Shown here: piece after piece, positions 2,995 through 33,243 of the stretch
Layout: each line of letters starts with the position of its first letter
Position numbering within the stretch: position 1 is the first letter of the stretch
DNA from: Escherichia phage A51.2
Direction: 5' to 3' (one strand)
DNA: 64,000 bases
Sequence record: ON286973
Notes under the pieces: generated by a model
Databases searched by the model: none
What the model saw: the letters and a program-made list of their open reading frames with translations, nothing else
What the model was told of the DNA's origin: nothing
Translations under genes and position numbers: made by a program

Positions 2995-3813
2995 TTGAGC
3001 AAGAAAGAGTCCAACGACAAATATTACACAAACCCTGAGTATGCAGAATATCTTGTTGGTAAAGTAAAAGATAAGTATGGAAATTGTGCATACGTTGAGC
3101 CTTCTGCTGGAAGGGGTTCTTTTTCAAAACTATTTTCAGAGATACTGTCTTACGATCTGGTACCAGATCCTGAATTTGAAGGACCAACACCGTGCATTCA
3201 GGCAAACTTCTTGGAGGTGCATCCCAAGGCAGATGTCTTCATAGGTAACCCACCATTTGGCAAGAATTCATCTTTAGCTTGCAAATTCTTTAACCATTGT
3301 GCATCATTGCTAGAGCTTGGAGGGGCTATAGCCTTCATCTTGCCACGGACATTTGAAAAAATATTTTTTGCAAACAAACTGGACATGTCTATGCACCTTG
3401 TCTACAGTGAAAGGTGCCCTAAGAACTCGTTTCTACTTAATGGCAAACCTTATGACGTGCCATGTGTTTTCCAAATTTGGGAGAAAAAGGCGTGCAACAG
3501 GGATCCTGTAGAGATTGGAGAGAATAAGTTATTTTCTTTTAGCACACCAGATGACTACGACTTCTGTGTAAGACGTGTTGGGTATAATGCTGGAAAAGTA
3601 TTGGGGGATGATGACCCAAAATCTGAAGAATCAACATATTTCATAAAATCTTTAGTTGACGGTGTTGACAGAGTGTTTGCTGAATGCTATTCTTCTTTTC
3701 AAGAAGAAGCAGGTAAGACTGCTGGAATGAAGAGTATAGGTAAGAAAGAACTACAATACATTTTGGAGACCAGGTATGATCAAAAGCATAGACTTGACCA
3801 AAGAACTTACTGA
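2995..3813 (+). CDS. DNA N6-adenine methyltransferase
   Basis: Motif I-like EPSAGRGSF and motif IV NPPF; probable TTG start after GGAGG (ORF-track start 2965 lies inside the terminator hairpin). Confidence 0.65.
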   Translation: MSKKESNDKYYTNPEYAEYLVGKVKDKYGNCAYVEPSAGRGSFSKLFSEILSYDLVPDPEFEGPTPCIQANFLEVHPKADVFIGNPPFGKNSSLACKFFNHCASLLELGGAIAFILPRTFEKIFFANKLDMSMHLVYSERCPKNSFLLNGKPYDVPCVFQIWEKKACNRDPVEIGENKLFSFSTPDDYDFCVRRVGYNAGKVLGDDDPKSEESTYFIKSLVDGVDRVFAECYSSFQEEAGKTAGMKSIGKKELQYILETRYDQKHRLDQRTY

Positions 3814-11361: not shown

Positions 11362-13496
11362 AAGTTGTAAAACGGGACGGTAGAGAAGAGTTCTATAACG
11401 GAATTAAGGTGATCAAGGCGGCAGAGTCCGCCTTACTTGAGTCTGGACATACTGAAGAAGAAGCTTACCGGATCGCCTGCGCGGTTAATGAAGTTGTTGC
11501 TAACAATCTACCAACCGACCAGTGCACGATCTCTGTAAAAAATATCCATATCCTTGTTGAAGATGCTCTTATGGATATGGGTTTAAAATGTGCAGCCAGA
11601 GAATACATCCAGTATAGACAGACAAGAGATAATAACAGAGAGGCAGGTGGAAAACTGCTTGCAGATATTAGTGGCTTCTTGGATCGAACTTGTGATGAAT
11701 TTACAAAAGAAAACGCAAATAAGCCTACTAATCATGTACACACTCATCGCGACCTGCTTGCAGGTATTCTTAGCAAACACCTTGCATCAACACAGATCCT
11801 GCCAGACCGTGTCTCCGAAGAGCACAATAAAGGATTCATCCATGTGCATGATCTTGACTACTTGATCAGTCCGTTAACAAACTGTTGTTTGGTAAATTAT
11901 CCAGATATGTTGGAAAACGGATTCAACATTGGTAACGCCCATGTCAGTAAGCCGAAGTCAATAGGGGTTGCAACAACAATCCTTAGCCAAATCTCTAGTG
12001 CGGTAGCTAGTGCTCAATATGGTGGTCAGACTATGAGCCATATTGATCATTATCTGGCACAGTATGCTGAAGCAACCTATGAGAAGAACCTTAAATTTTG
12101 CCAGGAACATTGGTTGCCGGATGCTGAAACTGTTGCAATGCAAATGACAGATAAAGACGTATTTGACAGCATGCAGACTTTGCTCTATCAAATCAACACG
12201 TTAACTTCTGTCAACGGGCAAACTCCATTCATCACATTGAGTTTAGGACTGGATACCTCGGTCTTTGGTAGAATGATTACCAAAAACTACCTGAAAGTCC
12301 ACAAAATGGGTCTTGGTGAAGAACGTATCACACCTGTGTTCCCTAAAGTGCTGTTCTTCCTGGAAGAGGGTGTCAACATGAACCCTGGGGATCCTAACTA
12401 TGATTTGAAACGATTAGCTCTGGAATGCTGTGCAGAACGTATCTATCCTGACTTCGTATCTGTACCACTAAATAGAAAAGTGACAGGCTCGACAGATGGC
12501 AAAGTAACTAGCATGGGTTGCAGGAGTTTTCTTAGCAAATACAATGACTTGGAAACAGGCGAGGAGAAATACCTTGGCAGATTTAACTTAGGCGTTGTTA
12601 GCCTTAACCTGCCAATGATTGCGGCAAAAGCTAAGACGGAAGGTGTTGATTTCTTTGCAGTTCTTGACGAATACTTGGATCTTGCATACGAGGCTCACCT
12701 TGTAAGGGTTAACCGTCTAAAAGGAACAAAGGCAGGGCAGAACCCCATCATGTGGTGTGAAGGCGCTCTTGCTCGCCTGGATCCTGAAGAAAGTATTGAT
12801 AAACTCTTCTATGACGGGTACGCTTCCATCAGCATTGGGTACATTGGTGTGTATGAAACCTGTCAGATTTTGGGCAGAGAAGGTGACAAGGCTTTAGCTC
12901 TTGGAATCCTTCAGCACATGAGAGATGCTTGTGAGCGATACAAGAAGGAAAGTAGACTAGCATTTAGCTTGTACGGCACTCCTTCTGAGAGTCTATGCTA
13001 TAAAGCTGCAACCTGTCTGGATCGTGAATATCCAGAAGTGTTAAAGCACGAGCATGAATATCTCACCAACAGTTTCCATCAGCCAGTATGGATCAATAGC
13101 TCTCCTTTTGATAAGTGGGAGTATGAGGAAGGTTTTGCTATGATCTCCTCCGGTGGCAACATCGGATACGTAGAGACACCTAACCTGAAAAACAACCTTG
13201 ATGCTTTAGAGGCTCTTGTTGACTTCGGGTATAAACACATTATGTATTTTGGTATTAACCAACCTGTGGATAAATGTCTCAAGTGTGGTTTCTCTGGTGA
13301 GTTCAGTGCAACAGCTAAAGGGTTCTGCTGCCCTGCGTGCGGATGCCACGATGAACAATATATCTCAGTGATCCGAAGAGTGTCTGGCTATCTCTCCAGC
13401 CCGAACAGTAGGCCGTATAACACAGGTAAACAAGCAGAGGTTATCGAACGTGTTAAACATGTTGGGAATGTAGACTGTTGTCCGTTGAGTAAATAA
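11358..13496 (+). CDS. nrdD: anaerobic ribonucleotide reductase (class III)
   Basis: N-terminal ATP-cone, 712 aa, C-terminal glycyl-radical motif RRVSGYL plus Cys cluster; GTG start. Confidence 0.9.
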   Translation: MKVVKRDGREEFYNGIKVIKAAESALLESGHTEEEAYRIACAVNEVVANNLPTDQCTISVKNIHILVEDALMDMGLKCAAREYIQYRQTRDNNREAGGKLLADISGFLDRTCDEFTKENANKPTNHVHTHRDLLAGILSKHLASTQILPDRVSEEHNKGFIHVHDLDYLISPLTNCCLVNYPDMLENGFNIGNAHVSKPKSIGVATTILSQISSAVASAQYGGQTMSHIDHYLAQYAEATYEKNLKFCQEHWLPDAETVAMQMTDKDVFDSMQTLLYQINTLTSVNGQTPFITLSLGLDTSVFGRMITKNYLKVHKMGLGEERITPVFPKVLFFLEEGVNMNPGDPNYDLKRLALECCAERIYPDFVSVPLNRKVTGSTDGKVTSMGCRSFLSKYNDLETGEEKYLGRFNLGVVSLNLPMIAAKAKTEGVDFFAVLDEYLDLAYEAHLVRVNRLKGTKAGQNPIMWCEGALARLDPEESIDKLFYDGYASISIGYIGVYETCQILGREGDKALALGILQHMRDACERYKKESRLAFSLYGTPSESLCYKAATCLDREYPEVLKHEHEYLTNSFHQPVWINSSPFDKWEYEEGFAMISSGGNIGYVETPNLKNNLDALEALVDFGYKHIMYFGINQPVDKCLKCGFSGEFSATAKGFCCPACGCHDEQYISVIRRVSGYLSSPNSRPYNTGKQAEVIERVKHVGNVDCCPLSK

Positions 13497-13506
13497 GGAA
13501 AGAGGT

Positions 13507-13537
13507 GGAGAGCAAGGATGCTCTCATTTTTTTTTTT
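13507..13537 (+). terminator. intrinsic terminator (GGAGAGCA-AGGA-TGCTCTC plus T11)
   Basis: Stem-loop followed by 11 T residues right after nrdD. Confidence 0.7.
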
Positions 13538-13544
13538 GTTTTTA

Positions 13545-13573
13545 TTGACTTCTATTCCTCTTTTCTATAGTAT
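13545..13573 (+). promoter_or_regulatory. sigma70-like promoter (TTGACT-17-TAGTAT)
   Basis: Hexamers with 17-bp spacer, 39 nt upstream of 13612 ATG. Confidence 0.5.
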
Positions 13574-13611
13574 GCAATATAAAGTGAATAGCGGAAGGGT
13601 CTGGTCTGGTA

Positions 13612-14544
13612 ATGAGAAGACTAACAACCGAAGAGTTTATAGAAAAAGCTCAGACTATACATGGTGACAAATATGATTACTTCAAAGTGGAGTATAAAAA
13701 CAACAAGACACCTGTGTGTATAATTTGTCCTGAGCACGGTGAGTTCTGGCAAACCCCTGTGGCACATGCTTTCAAGAATCATGGTTGTCCAAGGTGTGGT
13801 GGGTCAGCGAAAAAGAACACTGAAGAGTTCATAAAAGAGGCTATGGCTGTTCATGGGGACAAGTACGATTACTCATTAGTCAAATATGCGAACATGAGAA
13901 CGCCTGTAAAAATTGTTTGCCCTGAACACGGTGTGTTTGAACAATACCCTGAAAACCACTTATACCAAAGAAACGGCTGCCCAGAGTGCTATGACTTAAG
14001 ACGTGGGCAAAGTCAAGCGTTAACCCATAAGGAGCACGCTGCAATTATCCACAAAGCCAACCCAGACATAGAAATATTAGAGAAAATTGCCAATGATAAC
14101 ACAAAAGTGCAATGTAGGTGCAAAATTTGTGGGTATAAGTGGTCTGCTAAACCTAATAACCTAAAAAGTGGTCGTGGCTGCTGTAAATGCGCACAAAATG
14201 GATTCTTATCTCATGAGTACGGTAAACTCTACATTATGGTTGATGACTTAGAAGTGCCAACACTTATGAAAATCGGTGTATGCGTTAAAATGCACAGGAG
14301 GAAAAATGAGGTGCTTAACAGTGCTCGTAAATCTGGCGCAGGTGTCCACACTCTTCACGTAGTAAAAACATGGAGCGGATCAACTCAAAACATGGTAGAT
14401 TTAGAAAAATCTGTGCATAAGGCCTTGAGCAAGTATAAAATAAACTTTCCTGTAAAATTTGACGGTAGCACTGAGTTTTTCTACTACAGGCCTGAAGTGT
14501 TTGACACGGTAGAAGAGGTATACAAGAAGATTTGTGGTAAATGA
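13612..14544 (+). CDS. homing-endonuclease-like protein: three zinc-ribbon repeats plus C-terminal T5orf172/GIY-YIG-like domain
   Basis: Repeats HGDKYDY...CPEHG...GCP.C x3; C-terminal LYIM...KIG...TEFF pattern; sits between nrdD and nrdG with its own promoter. Confidence 0.5.
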   Translation: MRRLTTEEFIEKAQTIHGDKYDYFKVEYKNNKTPVCIICPEHGEFWQTPVAHAFKNHGCPRCGGSAKKNTEEFIKEAMAVHGDKYDYSLVKYANMRTPVKIVCPEHGVFEQYPENHLYQRNGCPECYDLRRGQSQALTHKEHAAIIHKANPDIEILEKIANDNTKVQCRCKICGYKWSAKPNNLKSGRGCCKCAQNGFLSHEYGKLYIMVDDLEVPTLMKIGVCVKMHRRKNEVLNSARKSGAGVHTLHVVKTWSGSTQNMVDLEKSVHKALSKYKINFPVKFDGSTEFFYYRPEVFDTVEEVYKKICGK

Positions 14545-14596
14545 TTGTAGAAAGATATGCATATCTTAAACATGCTATTAACTAAGGAGGTGCAGT

Positions 14597-16132: not shown

Positions 16133-16921
16133 ATGGGTCGAGCTAAAGAAACAAAACGCATGCGTGATGAAGCTAGAGAGGCTCGCAAATCTGATCGCCT
16201 GCGTAAGGCTGCTGAGAAATTTGCTGACGAAAGAGAGCACACCGCTCCAGCTCTCCGACCAATGAATAAGAAGCAGCAAAAGTATCTTGATTATCTAGGG
16301 TCACGTAAGATTATTATTGTAAACGGTGTGTTTGGATCCGGTAAGACATTTATGGCATCTGCATATGCAGGTGATCTTCTGCGTAAGAACGAGATTGATA
16401 AGATCATTGTTGCACGTCCTTACGTCCAGACAGGAAAGACTTCAGGATTTAAACCCGGAAATGCAATGCAGAAACTGTGGCCCTATCTTCGAAGCATGAT
16501 GGACACGATTTGTCGTCGTGTTGGCAAAGGTGCTTTTACCGCAATGCTGGGAGACGGTCAGAACAGTCGTATCGAGATTTGTGAAGTTGAAAGCATTCGT
16601 GGTCGTAGTTTCGATGAGCGATGCTTTGTCCTGATTGACGAGGCACAGCAAACTAACCCTGAAGAAATGTTGTCAATTATCACAAGGATCTCTGATCAAG
16701 CCACCCTTGTAATTATGGGTGATAATAGCCAACGTGACATCCCTGGTAAATCTGGCCTCGCATGGGTGACGGATTTCTTTACTCGTCATCCAGATCCTGA
16801 GGTTGGAATGATTAGCTTTGATAGTCCAGACGATGTCGTTCGTTCCGGGTTGGGTCGTCAGATTGCACTCAATCTTATTGAAGATCGTGCAAATCATATT
16901 TGGACCCCTGTTTCCGAGTAA
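16133..16921 (+). CDS. phoH: PhoH-like ATPase
   Basis: Walker A GVFGSGKTFMA, Walker B FVLIDEAQQ, PhoH-like overall pattern; RBS AGGAG. Confidence 0.85.
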   Translation: MGRAKETKRMRDEAREARKSDRLRKAAEKFADEREHTAPALRPMNKKQQKYLDYLGSRKIIIVNGVFGSGKTFMASAYAGDLLRKNEIDKIIVARPYVQTGKTSGFKPGNAMQKLWPYLRSMMDTICRRVGKGAFTAMLGDGQNSRIEICEVESIRGRSFDERCFVLIDEAQQTNPEEMLSIITRISDQATLVIMGDNSQRDIPGKSGLAWVTDFFTRHPDPEVGMISFDSPDDVVRSGLGRQIALNLIEDRANHIWTPVSE

Positions 16922-16966
16922 TACAGAAGGGTGGTTATTCCACCCTTAAAATATCTAAAACAGTTG

Positions 16967-16995
16967 TTGACAAACAGGTAAGCTTTAGATATTAT
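16967..16995 (+). promoter_or_regulatory. sigma70-like promoter (TTGACA-17-TATTAT)
   Basis: Hexamers with 17-bp spacer after PhoH; preceded by hairpin GGGTGG..CCACCC. Confidence 0.55.
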
Positions 16996-17025
16996 CATCG
17001 GACAAAACAAGGAGAAGGAGATAGT

Positions 17026-17337
17026 ATGGCTACAATACAAGAGAGACTGAATAAAATATACTGCCTGTTCGTCTACAACGGTGAGACAATTTTGGCAAAT
17101 AAAGGATCCAAGAATGTGTGGATCAAGGACAGTGGTGGTAATATAATCAACTTAGCGTTGCTACGTGAGCGCCGACACAGATTCTTTATCGAGTCTCGAA
17201 TTATTGAAAGCAGCACCTGCTACAGAACAGGCGATAAAGTAATTGTTGACAATGATACGTGGTATGTGGTAGACTGGCAATCATTGAGTTGTGATGCTTC
17301 TGACAATCGTAAGTATTCCATAGTGATTGCTAAATAA
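17026..17337 (+). CDS. hypothetical protein
   Basis: ATG 17026 after AAGGAGAAGGAG, downstream of promoter. Confidence 0.45.
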   Translation: MATIQERLNKIYCLFVYNGETILANKGSKNVWIKDSGGNIINLALLRERRHRFFIESRIIESSTCYRTGDKVIVDNDTWYVVDWQSLSCDASDNRKYSIVIAK

Positions 17338-17397
17338 AGGTAAATGTGAATCAGGTTTAAATAAATAGCTTTCAACTTCCAATATTAAGGATTTCTC

Positions 17398-18444
17398 ATG
17401 AATTTAACACCTCGCAGCACCATGGTACACGGCATGAAAGAAAAACAGAACGGTTTCGAACCTATGAGTAATAAAATGTTTGGTATGCCGGGCGGTATCA
17501 TGGAAACATACAGCTACCCAACACCTGTTGTTGACCACGTTCTTTATATCGACGATTTGGAAGACCTGCAGGATCATATGTCTCGTCTGCAGACGATCCG
17601 TATGGCTCAGCCGGAAGAAAGCATTCGGGTGATCATCAATAGCCCTGGTGGTTGCGTGCACATTGCAATGGCTTATCTACAGGCATTCCGCGAGTCTCAG
17701 GCAAGCGTTGTTGCACATGCTGAAGGGATGTGCTGCTCTGCGGGAACAATCTTATGGCTGGGTTGTAAAGAACGCACTGTGGCTCCGGACACAGAATTTA
17801 TGTTCCACTACTATCAAGGTGGCACTTATGGTAACGGTGTGAACATGAATACTCAGGTCAGCTACTGGAAAAAACGTTTTGAACGCCTGATCGAAAAATA
17901 CTACGGTGGGGTGCTGACAGAAGATGAGATCGCATCCATCACAGCTGGTGGTGAAGTGTGGTTGGACGGAGAGGAGCTGGCAGCTCGAACTGGAGCCATC
18001 ATTCTGGATGAAGGTAACATACAGCGCATCCAGAACGGACAAAAACCTAAAAAGCTTCTGGCAAAAGGTGATGAAGGCGTGTTAGGTGAAGCAGGTCTTC
18101 CTGAGATTCACCAGTGCACCTCTTTAGATGAGCTAGTTCATGCTGTTGAATCTGCGAAAGCGGTTGGTTCGAAAGGTGATGTTCACACTGTGTTCCTAAA
18201 TCTGCAGATGGAAAGTGGTGAGACCATTAAGATTGCCTTAGGTGAGATTACCTCAGAAGATCTGCAGCGATTCTCTGTCGTTGAACTTCAAGACATTCTG
18301 TCCCAATTGAAGACAACCCTGAACGGCGGTGAAGAGGTTAAGGTAAAAGATAAGACTCGCAAGCGTCTGGTGGACAATATTATTAAAACAGCAAAAGAGC
18401 TCAATGAAAAAATCCTGGGTGCAGGAATTGTCGAAGAAGCTTAA
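17398..18444 (+). CDS. ClpP-family serine peptidase with about 170-aa C-terminal extension
   Basis: VIINSPGG...CSAGT...MFHY matches ClpP/S14 signature with Ser and His positions; 348 aa. Confidence 0.6.
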   Translation: MNLTPRSTMVHGMKEKQNGFEPMSNKMFGMPGGIMETYSYPTPVVDHVLYIDDLEDLQDHMSRLQTIRMAQPEESIRVIINSPGGCVHIAMAYLQAFRESQASVVAHAEGMCCSAGTILWLGCKERTVAPDTEFMFHYYQGGTYGNGVNMNTQVSYWKKRFERLIEKYYGGVLTEDEIASITAGGEVWLDGEELAARTGAIILDEGNIQRIQNGQKPKKLLAKGDEGVLGEAGLPEIHQCTSLDELVHAVESAKAVGSKGDVHTVFLNLQMESGETIKIALGEITSEDLQRFSVVELQDILSQLKTTLNGGEEVKVKDKTRKRLVDNIIKTAKELNEKILGAGIVEEA

Positions 18445-18495: not shown

Positions 18496-19029
18496 ATGAC
18501 TTGTGCTAGAAAACCTGATGAACAACGTAACGCTTACGATGAGTATGTGACACCGGAGTGGTGTGCAGAAGGGCTGTATGACCTTATTCCGTTCCCAGAA
18601 GACTGGACCTATTTAGAGCCTTGCAGGAATAGTGCCTCAGGTGTGTTCTACTCACGTATGCCGTTAGGATCTGCATGGGGAGAAATCCAAGAAGGTGTTG
18701 ACTATCTGAATACAGAATACAACCATGTTGACTGTATTATCACCAACCCACCATACAGTTTGGCTCGTGAGTTTGTAGACAAGGCGTTGAAAGATGCTGA
18801 CGTAGTTATTATGCTTTTGCGTCTTAATTTTCTGGAAAGCAAAGCCAGATTTGAATGGTGGCTTGATAATGCACCTACCACTGTGATCACAATATCTAAG
18901 CGTCCATCTTTTCAATCAAATGGCAGAACTGACGGGCAAGCATATGCATATTTTGTCTGGGATAAGAAAAACCGTTTAGACTTGCCGCCATTTATGTGGT
19001 TGGCACCTCCAGAGGTAGACCTGAAATGA
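18496..19029 (+). CDS. small DNA N6-adenine methyltransferase-like protein (phage Dam-like)
   Basis: ITNPPYS motif (NPPY) in 177-aa protein; RBS GGAGA. Confidence 0.55.
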   Translation: MTCARKPDEQRNAYDEYVTPEWCAEGLYDLIPFPEDWTYLEPCRNSASGVFYSRMPLGSAWGEIQEGVDYLNTEYNHVDCIITNPPYSLAREFVDKALKDADVVIMLLRLNFLESKARFEWWLDNAPTTVITISKRPSFQSNGRTDGQAYAYFVWDKKNRLDLPPFMWLAPPEVDLK

Positions 19030-30767: not shown

Positions 30768-32183
30768 CGCACAATTAGCTGCCCGGCCAAAGTGCTGGAA
30801 GCACCTATAACACATCTTTCAACTAAATTTCCCACCACCACAATCACTTACCTTCCACACATGACTGTTTGCTTGTTTAGTGAGCAGTCATGCCTTGACA
30901 TTCTTGCCTATCCTGATAAAATTAAGTTCTTCTCTTTTCTTTTACCGAGTAATTCGGGTTTTCTGTTCTCTTCGGTTTGAAGGGGTATAGAGATACACCT
31001 GAGTGAACAGGGTGAACAACCGAACCATTAGCTATGGCATTAGCATGGCGAAGCGGACGGGTGACGAAAGAGGGGCCGGAGGACACCAGTCACTGCCATA
31101 TGATATATGGGTGATAACCTGAAGAGTCTGAATAAGTGTTTAAGTACCAGTCAGAGGAAAAGGTGAATGGTAGCCGAAGGGGGGAGGGGGGTTTCTTGTA
31201 TCTTTAATTTGTATATTATGTATACACTTGTAAACCAATCTAATCTGAATCTGTTTACCACACAAAGCGGATAGAGACAAATATTGCCTATTAAACTTGA
31301 ATTATTTATAGAAAATACCACAACACCCCTTAAGTCTTTGATTTTACACACAAATCCTACAGATATTCAACCTCCATATTTAACATACTTGTAACATATT
31401 CCATACTCTACCTGCCTGATCAATTTCCCCAACTACATTCTCATATTTCCCCTGTCTGTACTACCCTGCCCCACCGGGAGTCCCGTCATATCTGGCTTTC
31501 CAGCAAATATCACACCCACAAATATCATGCCTGAAGAGGGTTTCATCCCATAATACCTGCCTTGCCTGAAGAGCGCTTCATACACCACGTAAATTTTTTA
31601 ATTGACCTCCCCTGCCCCGCCGGAGAGGTTGGCTTTTCCCACACAGACCTGGAGAGTCAGCCAGAAATATCTGAATAGGCCCAGTTCTACCACGATTTTG
31701 ACCTGACCTACAGGAGCGCTGCCAGGCGGACGAAATGGGAATACTTCTCATTCTTATAACAATTCTCAAATATCGAGGCAGTGAGGCAAATTAATAGGCC
31801 AGGCCGTTCACACAGTGGCACAACATTTGCAACCTATCTTGTGGGGTGAATGAGAATACCTATCATTGTGAGAACCATTATCATTACGGGCAATTTAACA
31901 TAATACCCATTATGCGCACCACTGGCGATCCATACAGGGATTGATAACACGAGTTACAGTTTACGCATATAACAATCATATTTCTTACTATTTGTGTGGG
32001 ATATAGTTAGCAGCCGATAGATTAGATATTGACCTGTGGACTTCCAACCGTCTAGACGTCTAAGCGCCCACACAACAAGGCTTATACATACATTACTGAA
32101 TGTAAACAGGGCCGCAAAAATGCTACCATACCAGTTTGTAAATTTTTCATGCAGCACTTGACAAAGAGGAGGAAAACTTGTCT

Positions 32184-32277
32184 GACACAATGTCACACAA
32201 TATGACACAATAACGGCTGTTACCATTCCATATCTCACTGTTTACGCATAGACTGTTTACGCCTGGATAGTTTACAC
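32184..32277. repeat. short direct repeats: GACACAAT x3 (32184-32211) and TGTTTACGC x2 plus GTTTACAC (32239-32277)
   Basis: Read directly from sequence; non-coding. Confidence 0.8.
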
Positions 32278-32395
32278 AGATATGATAAGCCATGCCATTC
32301 GTTTGCATGAAAACAATTAACAAGATAACAATCGACAAGTTAATAATCTTTCGCTGGCTATGCCAGGTGACTAGGTCACCCCTTCGGGCGTTCCT

Positions 32396-32550
32396 ATGAC
32401 ATAATATAAAAGCAGGGCAACTATTAGCAGATCTATAGTTGCCTTGCTTGTTATGTCATGATTAACTAAATACAAGGCAACTATGATCTGATTAATAGTT
32501 TGCAGACAAACTATCACGGGGGTGATGGTTACTGCTTTTATATTATGTCG
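32396..32550. repeat. inverted-repeat-bounded cassette with GGCAACTAT iterons in alternating orientation
   Basis: ATGACATAATATAAAAGCAG (32396-32415) vs its reverse complement 32532-32550 (19/20); GGCAACTAT at 32416, 32476; ATAGTTGCC at 32435; ATAGTTTGC at 32495. Confidence 0.75.
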
Positions 32551-33195
32551 CGACTCCGTCGCGCCATGCCATTCGTTTGCATAGTTGCCTTATTGTTATG
32601 AATAAAACAATTGCATTGTTAATGATTTCTTATCTTTCTATTAGTCATCTAATGATTTCAGTCAGGATAGTAATGTACAGTAAACATTAGACGACTAAAG
32701 ATTTCTCTGTTTATGATAACCTATCGTGACAATTTCGGACTGTTTACGAAAAATGTTGACACCTGAGCTGATTTATGTTATGCAGTTTACACGAATAATT
32801 ATTTTATACAGGTATTGACTATTCTGTTATTCTATGGTTGGAATAAATACTTAGCAGACTATAGAATGGTGAGCGTACGTAAATTCTGAGATCTGGCGGC
32901 TATAGTTATACTCGATTTTTCACGTAGAACGCGCTTTTGTGGTTATGTAAGTGTATGACTTATAAGAATTTTTATTTGTTGACAAGATATTGAAGATGTG
33001 CATCAGGTTAAAATTTGTGCAATAGCGGCATTACGTGCAATTTTGAGGGAGAAAACGGGTAAAAATGGCCCTGCTACCACACAATGAAAAATTATGCAAT
33101 AGTTATTTTATATGTATGTTTGTACAGTGTGTGGGATTGATGGCTAGTCAATTATTCCACTTGCCAGGCTGGGCCGTTTGTGGTAGGGGGAAGAG

Positions 33196-33225
33196 CAGAC
33201 AAAAAGAAAGGGGCCTAAGCCCCTT
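33196..33225 (-). terminator. intrinsic terminator for minus-strand small-gene cluster
   Basis: Hairpin AAGGGGC-TTAG-GCCCCTT followed by U-run on minus strand, just 3' of gene 33244..33663. Confidence 0.6.
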
Positions 33226-33243
33226 GATAATTCAGTTAAAAAA

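Follow-up and report, generated by a model that had tools for sequence, protein, structure and literature searches.

ClpP-like serine peptidases are known from bacteria and from several groups of phages. Closest to the protein analyzed here, outside its own family, are the members of PHROG 1827 (KVP40 ClpP, ICP1 gp211, and counterparts in T5-like phages, Pakpunavirus, Otagovirus, and Barbavirus; E=3e-40), which are likewise encoded among replication and nucleotide-metabolism genes, often just after PhoH, but are mostly 180-240 aa proteins without a C-terminal domain. Barbavirus has a separate peptidase gene in its head module, between the portal and major capsid genes (PMC6715854). Patchily distributed phage ClpPs have been proposed to target the host (PMC7824862); the literature searched holds annotation mentions and one comparative-genomics hypothesis, with no functional experiments on phage ClpP-like proteins and no experimental characterization of PHROG 1827 members. 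More distant are the ClpP-type prohead proteases (PHROGs 1684, 94, 133, and 2976; E-values to 7e-22), which also have a ClpP-like core, often followed by a C-terminal extension. By contrast with the gene described here, which is dispensable, located about 30 kb away from the head genes, and accompanied by a different head protease in the same genome, their genes are found between those for portal and major capsid protein, and head maturation depends on them. That different enzyme, an XkdF-type S78 protease (bas57_0005/bas54_0006), resembles the ClpP-like protein in being a phage-encoded serine protease, but is unrelated to it in fold and family (PF14550), has only 139 aa, and is encoded in the portal-scaffold position.

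Bacterial ClpP itself (1TYF; MEROPS S14; PF00574) shares with the phage protein the head-and-handle fold (TM ~0.7), the positions of the oxyanion Gly, the Ser, and the His, and the INSPGG and G-x-S-x-G-like motifs. Identity between the two is about 20%, and the differences are substantial: the phage protein has Glu or Gln for the triad Asp and Gly for Arg170, its ATPase-docking pocket is replaced, the region of the N-terminal axial loops is unalignable, and a linker and an 85-residue C-terminal domain are added. Moreover, the phage has no annotated Clp ATPase to go with it, as judged from MaxTheCat, a complete relative of 135 kb that is 99.6% identical.

The DNA that we analyzed, a stretch of 64,000 nucleotides (hereafter, the window), comes from a Vequintavirus, i.e., an rV5-like myophage of Escherichia coli; the region shares 98-99.6% identity with more than 100 such phages. 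The ORF at 17398-18444 on the plus strand, for which the sequence-only reading had given both the existence and the coordinates exactly right, far beyond chance, is preceded by an AAGGA Shine-Dalgarno sequence 6 nt 5' of the ATG and encodes a ClpP-like serine peptidase of 348 aa. It corresponds to rV5 gp117/ORF122, which the rV5 paper of 2013 calls a 'ClpP (ATP-dependent) protease subunit', and to bas54_0171 of phage Bas54. A ClpP or ClpP-like protease label is already on the gene in the matching Vequintavirus records, and proteins sharing 99-100% identity with its product have been labeled ClpP-like protease since 2008. Little changes in this respect for rV5 and its more than 100 relatives: the peptidase gene is a known, ordinary accessory gene, and its existence, its ClpP-like nature, the presence of a separate prohead protease, and the tolerance of disruption are all public. 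Three points were not found in the papers searched and are modest additions: the docking pocket is lost, the C-terminal domain is confined to the family, and the linkage with PhoH recurs.

The family is compact. The profile of PHROG 5410 ('ATP-dependent protease') matches residues 24-344 with E=2e-153, over profile positions 4-322 of 323, so that the C-terminal extension is part of a conserved family. A search of 5.8 billion proteins yielded 40 full-length homologues of 304-355 aa, and those with a source name all come from rV5-group phages or bacterial records.

We propose, with a probability of roughly 0.55, that this gene encodes an accessory, non-structural serine peptidase of the ClpP fold (MEROPS S14-like) that forms rings, has a working active site made up of Ser114, His137, and Glu186, does without the canonical ClpX/ClpA docking mode, and is conditionally useful to the phage. 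The ClpP fold and the role outside the head, taken on their own, are very probably right. The features on which the argument draws are as follows, all on the plus strand.

16133..16921, +, PhoH-like P-loop ATPase, 262 aa (PF02562, 161 bits; phrog_170, E=2e-75)
16967..16995, +, sigma-70-type promoter-like site, TTGACA-17-TATTAT, 11/12 matches (by consensus match only)
17026..17337, +, 103-aa ORF, rV5 ORF121, phrog_5456; first gene of a putative two-gene unit
17398..18444, +, ClpP-like peptidase gene, 348 aa
17530..18042, +, ClpP-fold core, residues 45-215 (pLDDT mostly >85; Foldseek TM ~0.7)
17737-17739, +, codon of Ser114
17806-17808, +, codon of His137
17953-17955, +, codon of Glu186, at the triad-Asp position
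18043..18180, +, linker, residues 216-261, variable and mostly disordered (pLDDT <50 at 222-241)
18181..18423, +, C-terminal domain, residues 262-342, within a conserved family-specific segment of about 85 residues
18456..18477, +, terminator-like hairpin just past the stop codon, 9-bp stem, UUCG loop, UUUAU
18496..19029, +, DNA (N6-adenine) methyltransferase (phrog_799, E=8e-67)

Fold and catalytic residues

Pfam CLP_protease (PF00574) matches residues 59-168 of the protein with a score of 47.7 bits (gathering cutoff, 20.2; E=2e-12), and solved bacterial ClpPs in the PDB match it at E ~1e-7. The core of an AlphaFold monomer model built from 19 homologues (overall pLDDT 74.9) aligns with many solved ClpPs in a Foldseek search of the PDB, over 160-173 columns. 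The motifs that had been named from the letters are all in place, namely, INSPGG at residues 80-85, CSAGT at 113-117, which includes Ser114, and MFHY at 135-138, which includes His137. The C-terminal extension claimed alongside them also exists beyond the ClpP core, but it amounts to 133 aa (residues 216-348) rather than the approximately 150 that had been estimated.

A 19-sequence alignment of the family (~35-70% identity) shows no variation at Ser114, His137, or Gly85 of the oxyanion hole. The position of the triad Asp, residue 186, is occupied by Glu in the rV5 clade and by Gln in 15 of the 19 family members; this position was placed through the HMMER alignment to Pseudomonas ClpP (ERD vs GGE) and also through short phage ClpP-like proteins that keep the Asp (GKDFW, NQDLW, GKDLW). 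The ClpP-like proteins of ICP1, KVP40, and the T5-like phage compared retain this Asp, unlike the window protein. Judging from the residues present, a Ser-His-Glu triad in the 348-aa protein is chemically plausible. In the alignment, the position of Arg170, the oligomerization sensor, is Gly. Given the replacement of Asp by Glu or Gln and of Arg170 by Gly, both catalysis and the coupling between rings could be weakened.

The handle helix (residues 150-169) and the Gly-rich strand are retained in the AlphaFold model, and because the handle region is kept, the peptidase probably assembles into ClpP-like rings. The N-terminus is a different matter. Residues 1-40 are modeled with pLDDT <50, and alignment with ClpP finds no counterpart of its axial loops or helix A before about residue 45; the family has a conserved N-terminal motif of its own, consisting of F28, Y40, and P41.

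The ATPase-docking surface and the PhoH neighborhood

ClpX and ClpA dock to ClpP through a hydrophobic pocket that receives their IGF/IGL loops. We took the list of pocket residues from a ClpAP cryo-EM study (L48, F49, A52, F82; L23, Y60, Y62, I90, M92, F112, L114, L189; bioRxiv 10.1101/820209) and mapped them through the E. coli ClpP sequence, identical to 1TYF, onto the phage family.

E. coli Y60: window R77, in 19/19 family members
E. coli F82: window E99, in 19/19 family members
E. coli I90: window H107, in 19/19 family members
E. coli M92: window E109, in 19/19 family members
E. coli F112: window T127, in 19/19 family members
E. coli L114: window A129, A or S across the family
E. coli Y62: window I79, I or V across the family, the sole mapped position that stays hydrophobic
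E. coli F49 and A52: no counterpart, inside a 5-residue deletion

Five of the 7 mapped pocket residues are thus invariant polar or charged residues in the family and, by this mapping, the hydrophobic IGF/IGL pocket is exchanged for a different, invariant polar surface. Because the pocket is replaced by Arg, Glu, His, Glu, and Thr, the phage peptidase probably does not engage ClpX or ClpA of the host in the usual way; it may still contact host ATPases by some other, non-canonical route. The widespread label 'ATP-dependent Clp protease proteolytic subunit', on which the pocket loss bears directly, becomes mechanistically doubtful since the ATPase-docking pocket is gone, and is probably over-specific and wrong in its mechanistic implication.

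These comparisons weigh on the most conservative interpretation, in which the protein is, as the database label implies, a genuine ClpP subunit, supplying host ClpX or ClpA with a proteolytic core made of itself only or of mixed rings with host ClpP. The best Pfam and PDB matches are indeed bacterial ClpPs, and the handle helix and Gly-rich strand are kept; furthermore, none of the 231 features of MaxTheCat is annotated as a cognate ClpX, ClpA, or ClpC, the only AAA+ protein annotated being a MoxR-type ATPase, which makes a host ATPase the obvious choice of partner. However, the invariant polar and charged residues in the pocket, the location of F49 and A52 within the deletion, the lack of alignable axial loops or helix A, and the presence of Gly at the Arg170 position and of Glu or Gln at the Asp171 position all run against a functional ClpX/ClpA core, and we consider this interpretation rather unlikely.

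The sequence-only reading had suggested a regulatory protease, a role that is hypothetical; judged by the same residue mapping, the pocket that a regulated protease of the ClpXP/ClpAP type needs for docking appears to be missing from the phage protein.

The gene lies inside a block of ribonucleotide-reductase, PhoH, and methyltransferase genes. Its flanks are, as had been read from the sequence, PhoH and a DNA methyltransferase (Pfam EcoRI_methylase and Dam matches are below threshold), with the 103-aa ORF between PhoH and the peptidase gene. The promoter-like site precedes this ORF as well as the peptidase gene, and its equivalent in rV5 is annotated as promoter P121, although the region as a whole holds 9 promoter-like sites vs 7.0 expected. 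The hairpin past the stop codon (-14.9 kcal/mol, z=-2.3) has a counterpart in HdK5 that carries a terminator annotation. The peptidase gene would then share a transcript with the 103-aa ORF, one that starts at a sigma-70-type promoter and stops at the hairpin, inside a nucleotide-metabolism and replication block, and the position of this two-gene unit would imply expression before, or apart from, that of the head genes.

The order of genes recurs. Among the Vequintavirinae genera seen, the methyltransferase follows immediately 3' of the peptidase gene in all 4, as it does in Barbavirus, whereas PhoH lies upstream in 3 of the 4 (Vequintavirus, Mydovirus, and Certrevirus); homologues of the 103-aa ORF precede the peptidase gene in Mydovirus and Avunavirus. 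We sampled by hand 15 further loci from other phage groups, and found the ClpP-like genes among replication and nucleotide-metabolism genes or among genes without annotated function; in none of the 15 was a ClpP-like gene beside the portal or major capsid protein (MCP) gene. PhoH, checked with tblastn, is located upstream on the same strand, 0-4 small genes away, in Vequintavirus, Mydovirus, Certrevirus, ICP1, Otagovirus, Vibrio phage F95, and Barbavirus; in Otagovirus, the two genes overlap, and Barbavirus carries the full PhoH-ClpP-methyltransferase order. This recurrent succession of PhoH and a ClpP-like gene in unrelated virulent phages is a testable lead on two widespread accessory genes.

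One way to read the linkage is that the peptidase and the adjacent PhoH-like ATPase form a phage-specific pair, possibly acting on RNA-bound or DNA-bound proteins. The recurrence of PhoH upstream in these phages, the complete order in Barbavirus, and the substitution of a conserved polar surface for the canonical partner pocket speak for such a pair. Against it, PhoH was not found near the ClpP-like gene in the sampled loci of Avunavirus and of T5-like, KVP40-like, Pakpunavirus, and N4-like phages, the adjacency may merely mirror membership in a shared accessory module, and the description given for PhoH relatives is that of RNA helicases rather than unfoldases (PMC7824862). We regard a dedicated pair as improbable. 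A broader version, to which we would attach equally small odds, is that the non-structural phage ClpP-like proteins constitute a distinct class that does without ClpX/ClpA docking and relies instead on PhoH, on a tethered C-terminal domain, or on both; if so, phage PhoH, whose role in phages has been called enigmatic (PMC7824862), would have a definite part to play in targeted proteolysis in the infected cell.

The C-terminal domain and the proposed role

The linker that follows the core differs in both length and sequence across the family and, in the rV5 clade, includes a specific insertion with one predicted helix. The C-terminal domain is far more constrained: in the 19-sequence alignment, Phe292 and Glu296 are invariant, and Leu297, Arg321, and Leu324 are nearly so. 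Modeled alone (pLDDT 80), it consists of a beta-hairpin, a short helix, and a helix-loop-helix, and it is acidic (pI = 5.15). A profile of the domain, compared with 1.84 billion representative sequences, retrieved members of the family, 2 family fragments, and 1 repeat protein with no ClpP-like region in its sequence, and a search of BFVD gave one match. The domain was found only in this Vequintavirinae family. The extensions of ICP1 gp211 (326 aa) and of the F95 protein (308 aa) have no detectable similarity to it, and homology with that of gp211 was rejected at an hhalign probability of 0.35%. The pattern of the sequence hinted at a SAP/HeH-like motif, but matches to SAP, HeH, and Rho-N DNA-binding motifs were sub-threshold and fit poorly with the acidic pI. 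Inspection by eye for a nested internal start that would yield a separate C-terminal protein, as in lambda C/Nu3, gave no convincing signal. Most plausibly, the domain is an orphan module for protein-protein contacts.

The gene could encode a catalytically crippled binder with a ClpP fold, which might, for example, inhibit host proteolysis or act as its decoy, or serve other proteins as a scaffold through its C-terminal domain, a notion that accommodates the non-conserved triad Asp, with Gln in 15/19 sequences, the Gly at the position of the oligomerization-sensor Arg, and the remodeled docking pocket. Yet, Ser114, His137, Gly85, and the motifs around them are invariant, as expected under selection for catalysis, and related short phage ClpP-like proteins retain Asp or Glu at the third position; we therefore give loss of activity little credence.

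In the reading that we prefer, an active accessory peptidase, the enzyme probably acts on peptides or on proteins, from host or phage, that are loosely folded. Substrates would then be chosen by the C-terminal domain, by the linked PhoH ATPase, or by the small protein encoded on the same putative transcript. The benefit would be conditional, for instance, in proteome remodeling or counter-defense, and would not be required for virion assembly.

The head-maturation protease and tolerance of gene disruption

The sequence-only reading had placed the gene outside a head-assembly context and suggested a function other than that of a prohead protease, while noting that a position next to portal or capsid genes in a complete genome would indicate the opposite. 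Both the placement and the suggestion are well supported. The terminase, portal, protease, scaffold, decoration, major capsid, and sheath proteins of MaxTheCat have no tblastn match in the 64-kb window. In the MaxTheCat genome, the head module occupies 0.7-6.8 kb and the ClpP-like gene 104.9-105.9 kb, the shortest gap between them being about 30 kb. The head module itself includes, between portal and scaffold, a 139-aa protein that matches Peptidase_S78_2 (XkdF) at 65 bits vs a cutoff of 24 and also matches PHROG 3017, 'head maturation protease'. This XkdF/S78-type protein, and not the ClpP-like one, is the head-maturation enzyme.

Prohead proteases frequently carry C-terminal targeting segments, and they usually leave the capsid. 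The absence of ORF122 from the 19 proteins found by mass spectrometry in the rV5 virion is, because of the latter, weak evidence. More direct are the data on Bas54, in which bas54_0171 is identical to the window protein at 344 of 349 positions (99%). The HIDEN-SEQ transposon screen of this phage counted, for each gene, the TA sites hit (bioRxiv 10.1101/2025.11.20.689424).

bas54_0171, ClpP-like protein: 28/44 TA sites, Intermediate
bas54_0006, prohead protease: 1/24 TA sites, Essential
Portal, scaffold, and major capsid protein: 0 insertions, Essential
PhoH: 30/32 TA sites, Non-essential
bas54_0172, small ORF: 25/27 TA sites, Non-essential
Methyltransferase: 33/34 TA sites, Non-essential

A second or alternative head-maturation protease, with the helical C-terminal part as a capsid-targeting or scaffold-like segment, could be imagined from the weaker matches to PHROGs 1684 (E=7e-22, extending to residue 253), 94, 2976, and 133, from weak tblastn matches to capsid maturation proteases of Gordonia phages, and from the frequency of targeting segments in such enzymes, but the phage has its own essential S78_2 protease in the head module, the ClpP-like gene tolerates insertions, unlike every head gene, it sits about 30 kb from the head genes inside a replication and metabolism block, its product is absent from the rV5 virion list, and its homologues never stand beside the portal or MCP gene in the 15 other loci, so that this option is very improbable indeed. 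A second head protease or a fusion with scaffold is ruled out by the genome position, the essential S78_2 protease, and the transposon data; given the insertion counts in Bas54 and the gene positions in MaxTheCat, the head-protease reading as a whole is close to excluded.

With regard to the accessory function, the Intermediate class of the ClpP-like gene indicates that it may have a mild fitness role; in competition, bas54_0171 showed no change in fitness (log2FC 0.23, p=0.80; bioRxiv 10.1101/2025.11.20.689424). Disruption of the orthologue is tolerated by Bas54, and growth without the gene is possible in the laboratory.

Recurrent order of PhoH and ClpP-like genes

A PhoH gene followed by a ClpP-like peptidase gene, with 0-4 small genes between them, is found in the A51.2 window (16133-18444) and in six sampled loci of other phages (L005, L007, L009, L014, L015 and L016). 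The phages displaying this order comprise Vequintavirinae, ICP1, Otagovirus, Vibrio phage F95 and Barbavirus. In Barbavirus, a methyltransferase gene is also present, directly downstream of the ClpP-like gene. Our literature search found no paper on the linkage between PhoH and ClpP-like genes.

Small ORFs upstream of the peptidase genes

The following small ORFs precede the ClpP-like genes:
Window 17026-17337, + strand: 103-aa ORF, phrog_5456
L009 (ICP1) 3240-3422: gp210, 60 aa, directly 5' of the extended ClpP-like gene
L015 (Vibrio phage F95) 3238-3432: small ORF, 64 aa, directly 5' of the extended ClpP-like gene

The 103-aa ORF, for which a Pfam search gave no match, is apparently cotranscribed with the peptidase gene. 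Mydovirus and Avunavirus carry homologues of it in the same relative position, and its orthologue in the related phage Bas54 is non-essential in the HIDEN-SEQ transposon screen (bioRxiv 10.1101/2025.11.20.689424). ICP1 gp210 and the F95 ORF are analogous to the 103-aa ORF in position and, when compared by eye, look homologous to each other, sharing the pattern …PW..(Y/W)SR..LE…ELFN…; this likeness hints that a small partner protein may be conserved.

Other features of the window and of a close relative

Window 13612-14544, + strand: 310-aa ORF that combines a T5orf172 domain with repeated modules of the treble-clef zinc-finger type (DUF723, CapR and DUF4379)
Window 30768-33243: ORF-poor stretch of 2.5 kb where gene direction changes from the + to the - strand, at the GC-skew maximum
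L001 3955-4374: XkdF/S78_2 head protease of the near-identical phage MaxTheCat

The 310-aa ORF, adjoined by anaerobic ribonucleotide reductase genes, is lacking at the equivalent position in MaxTheCat (megablast gap at window 13460-14580) and looks like a mobile, homing-endonuclease-like insertion.

The ORF-poor stretch is a candidate for an origin of replication or for a regulatory region and contains at least 6 copies of a ACTGTTTACG-type motif and the nested inverted repeats GGCAACTAT/ATAGTTGCC. An Rfam search of the stretch gave no match, and no tRNA genes were found in the 64-kb window. Judged by position, it appears to be the counterpart of the Bas54 intergenic region, ~2 kb long, where no transposon insertions were tolerated in HIDEN-SEQ (bioRxiv 10.1101/2025.11.20.689424).

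The best PHROG for the MaxTheCat head protease is phrog_1530, labelled 'DNA methyltransferase', of which the protease matches profile positions 244-373 only; this label would misdirect automated annotation.
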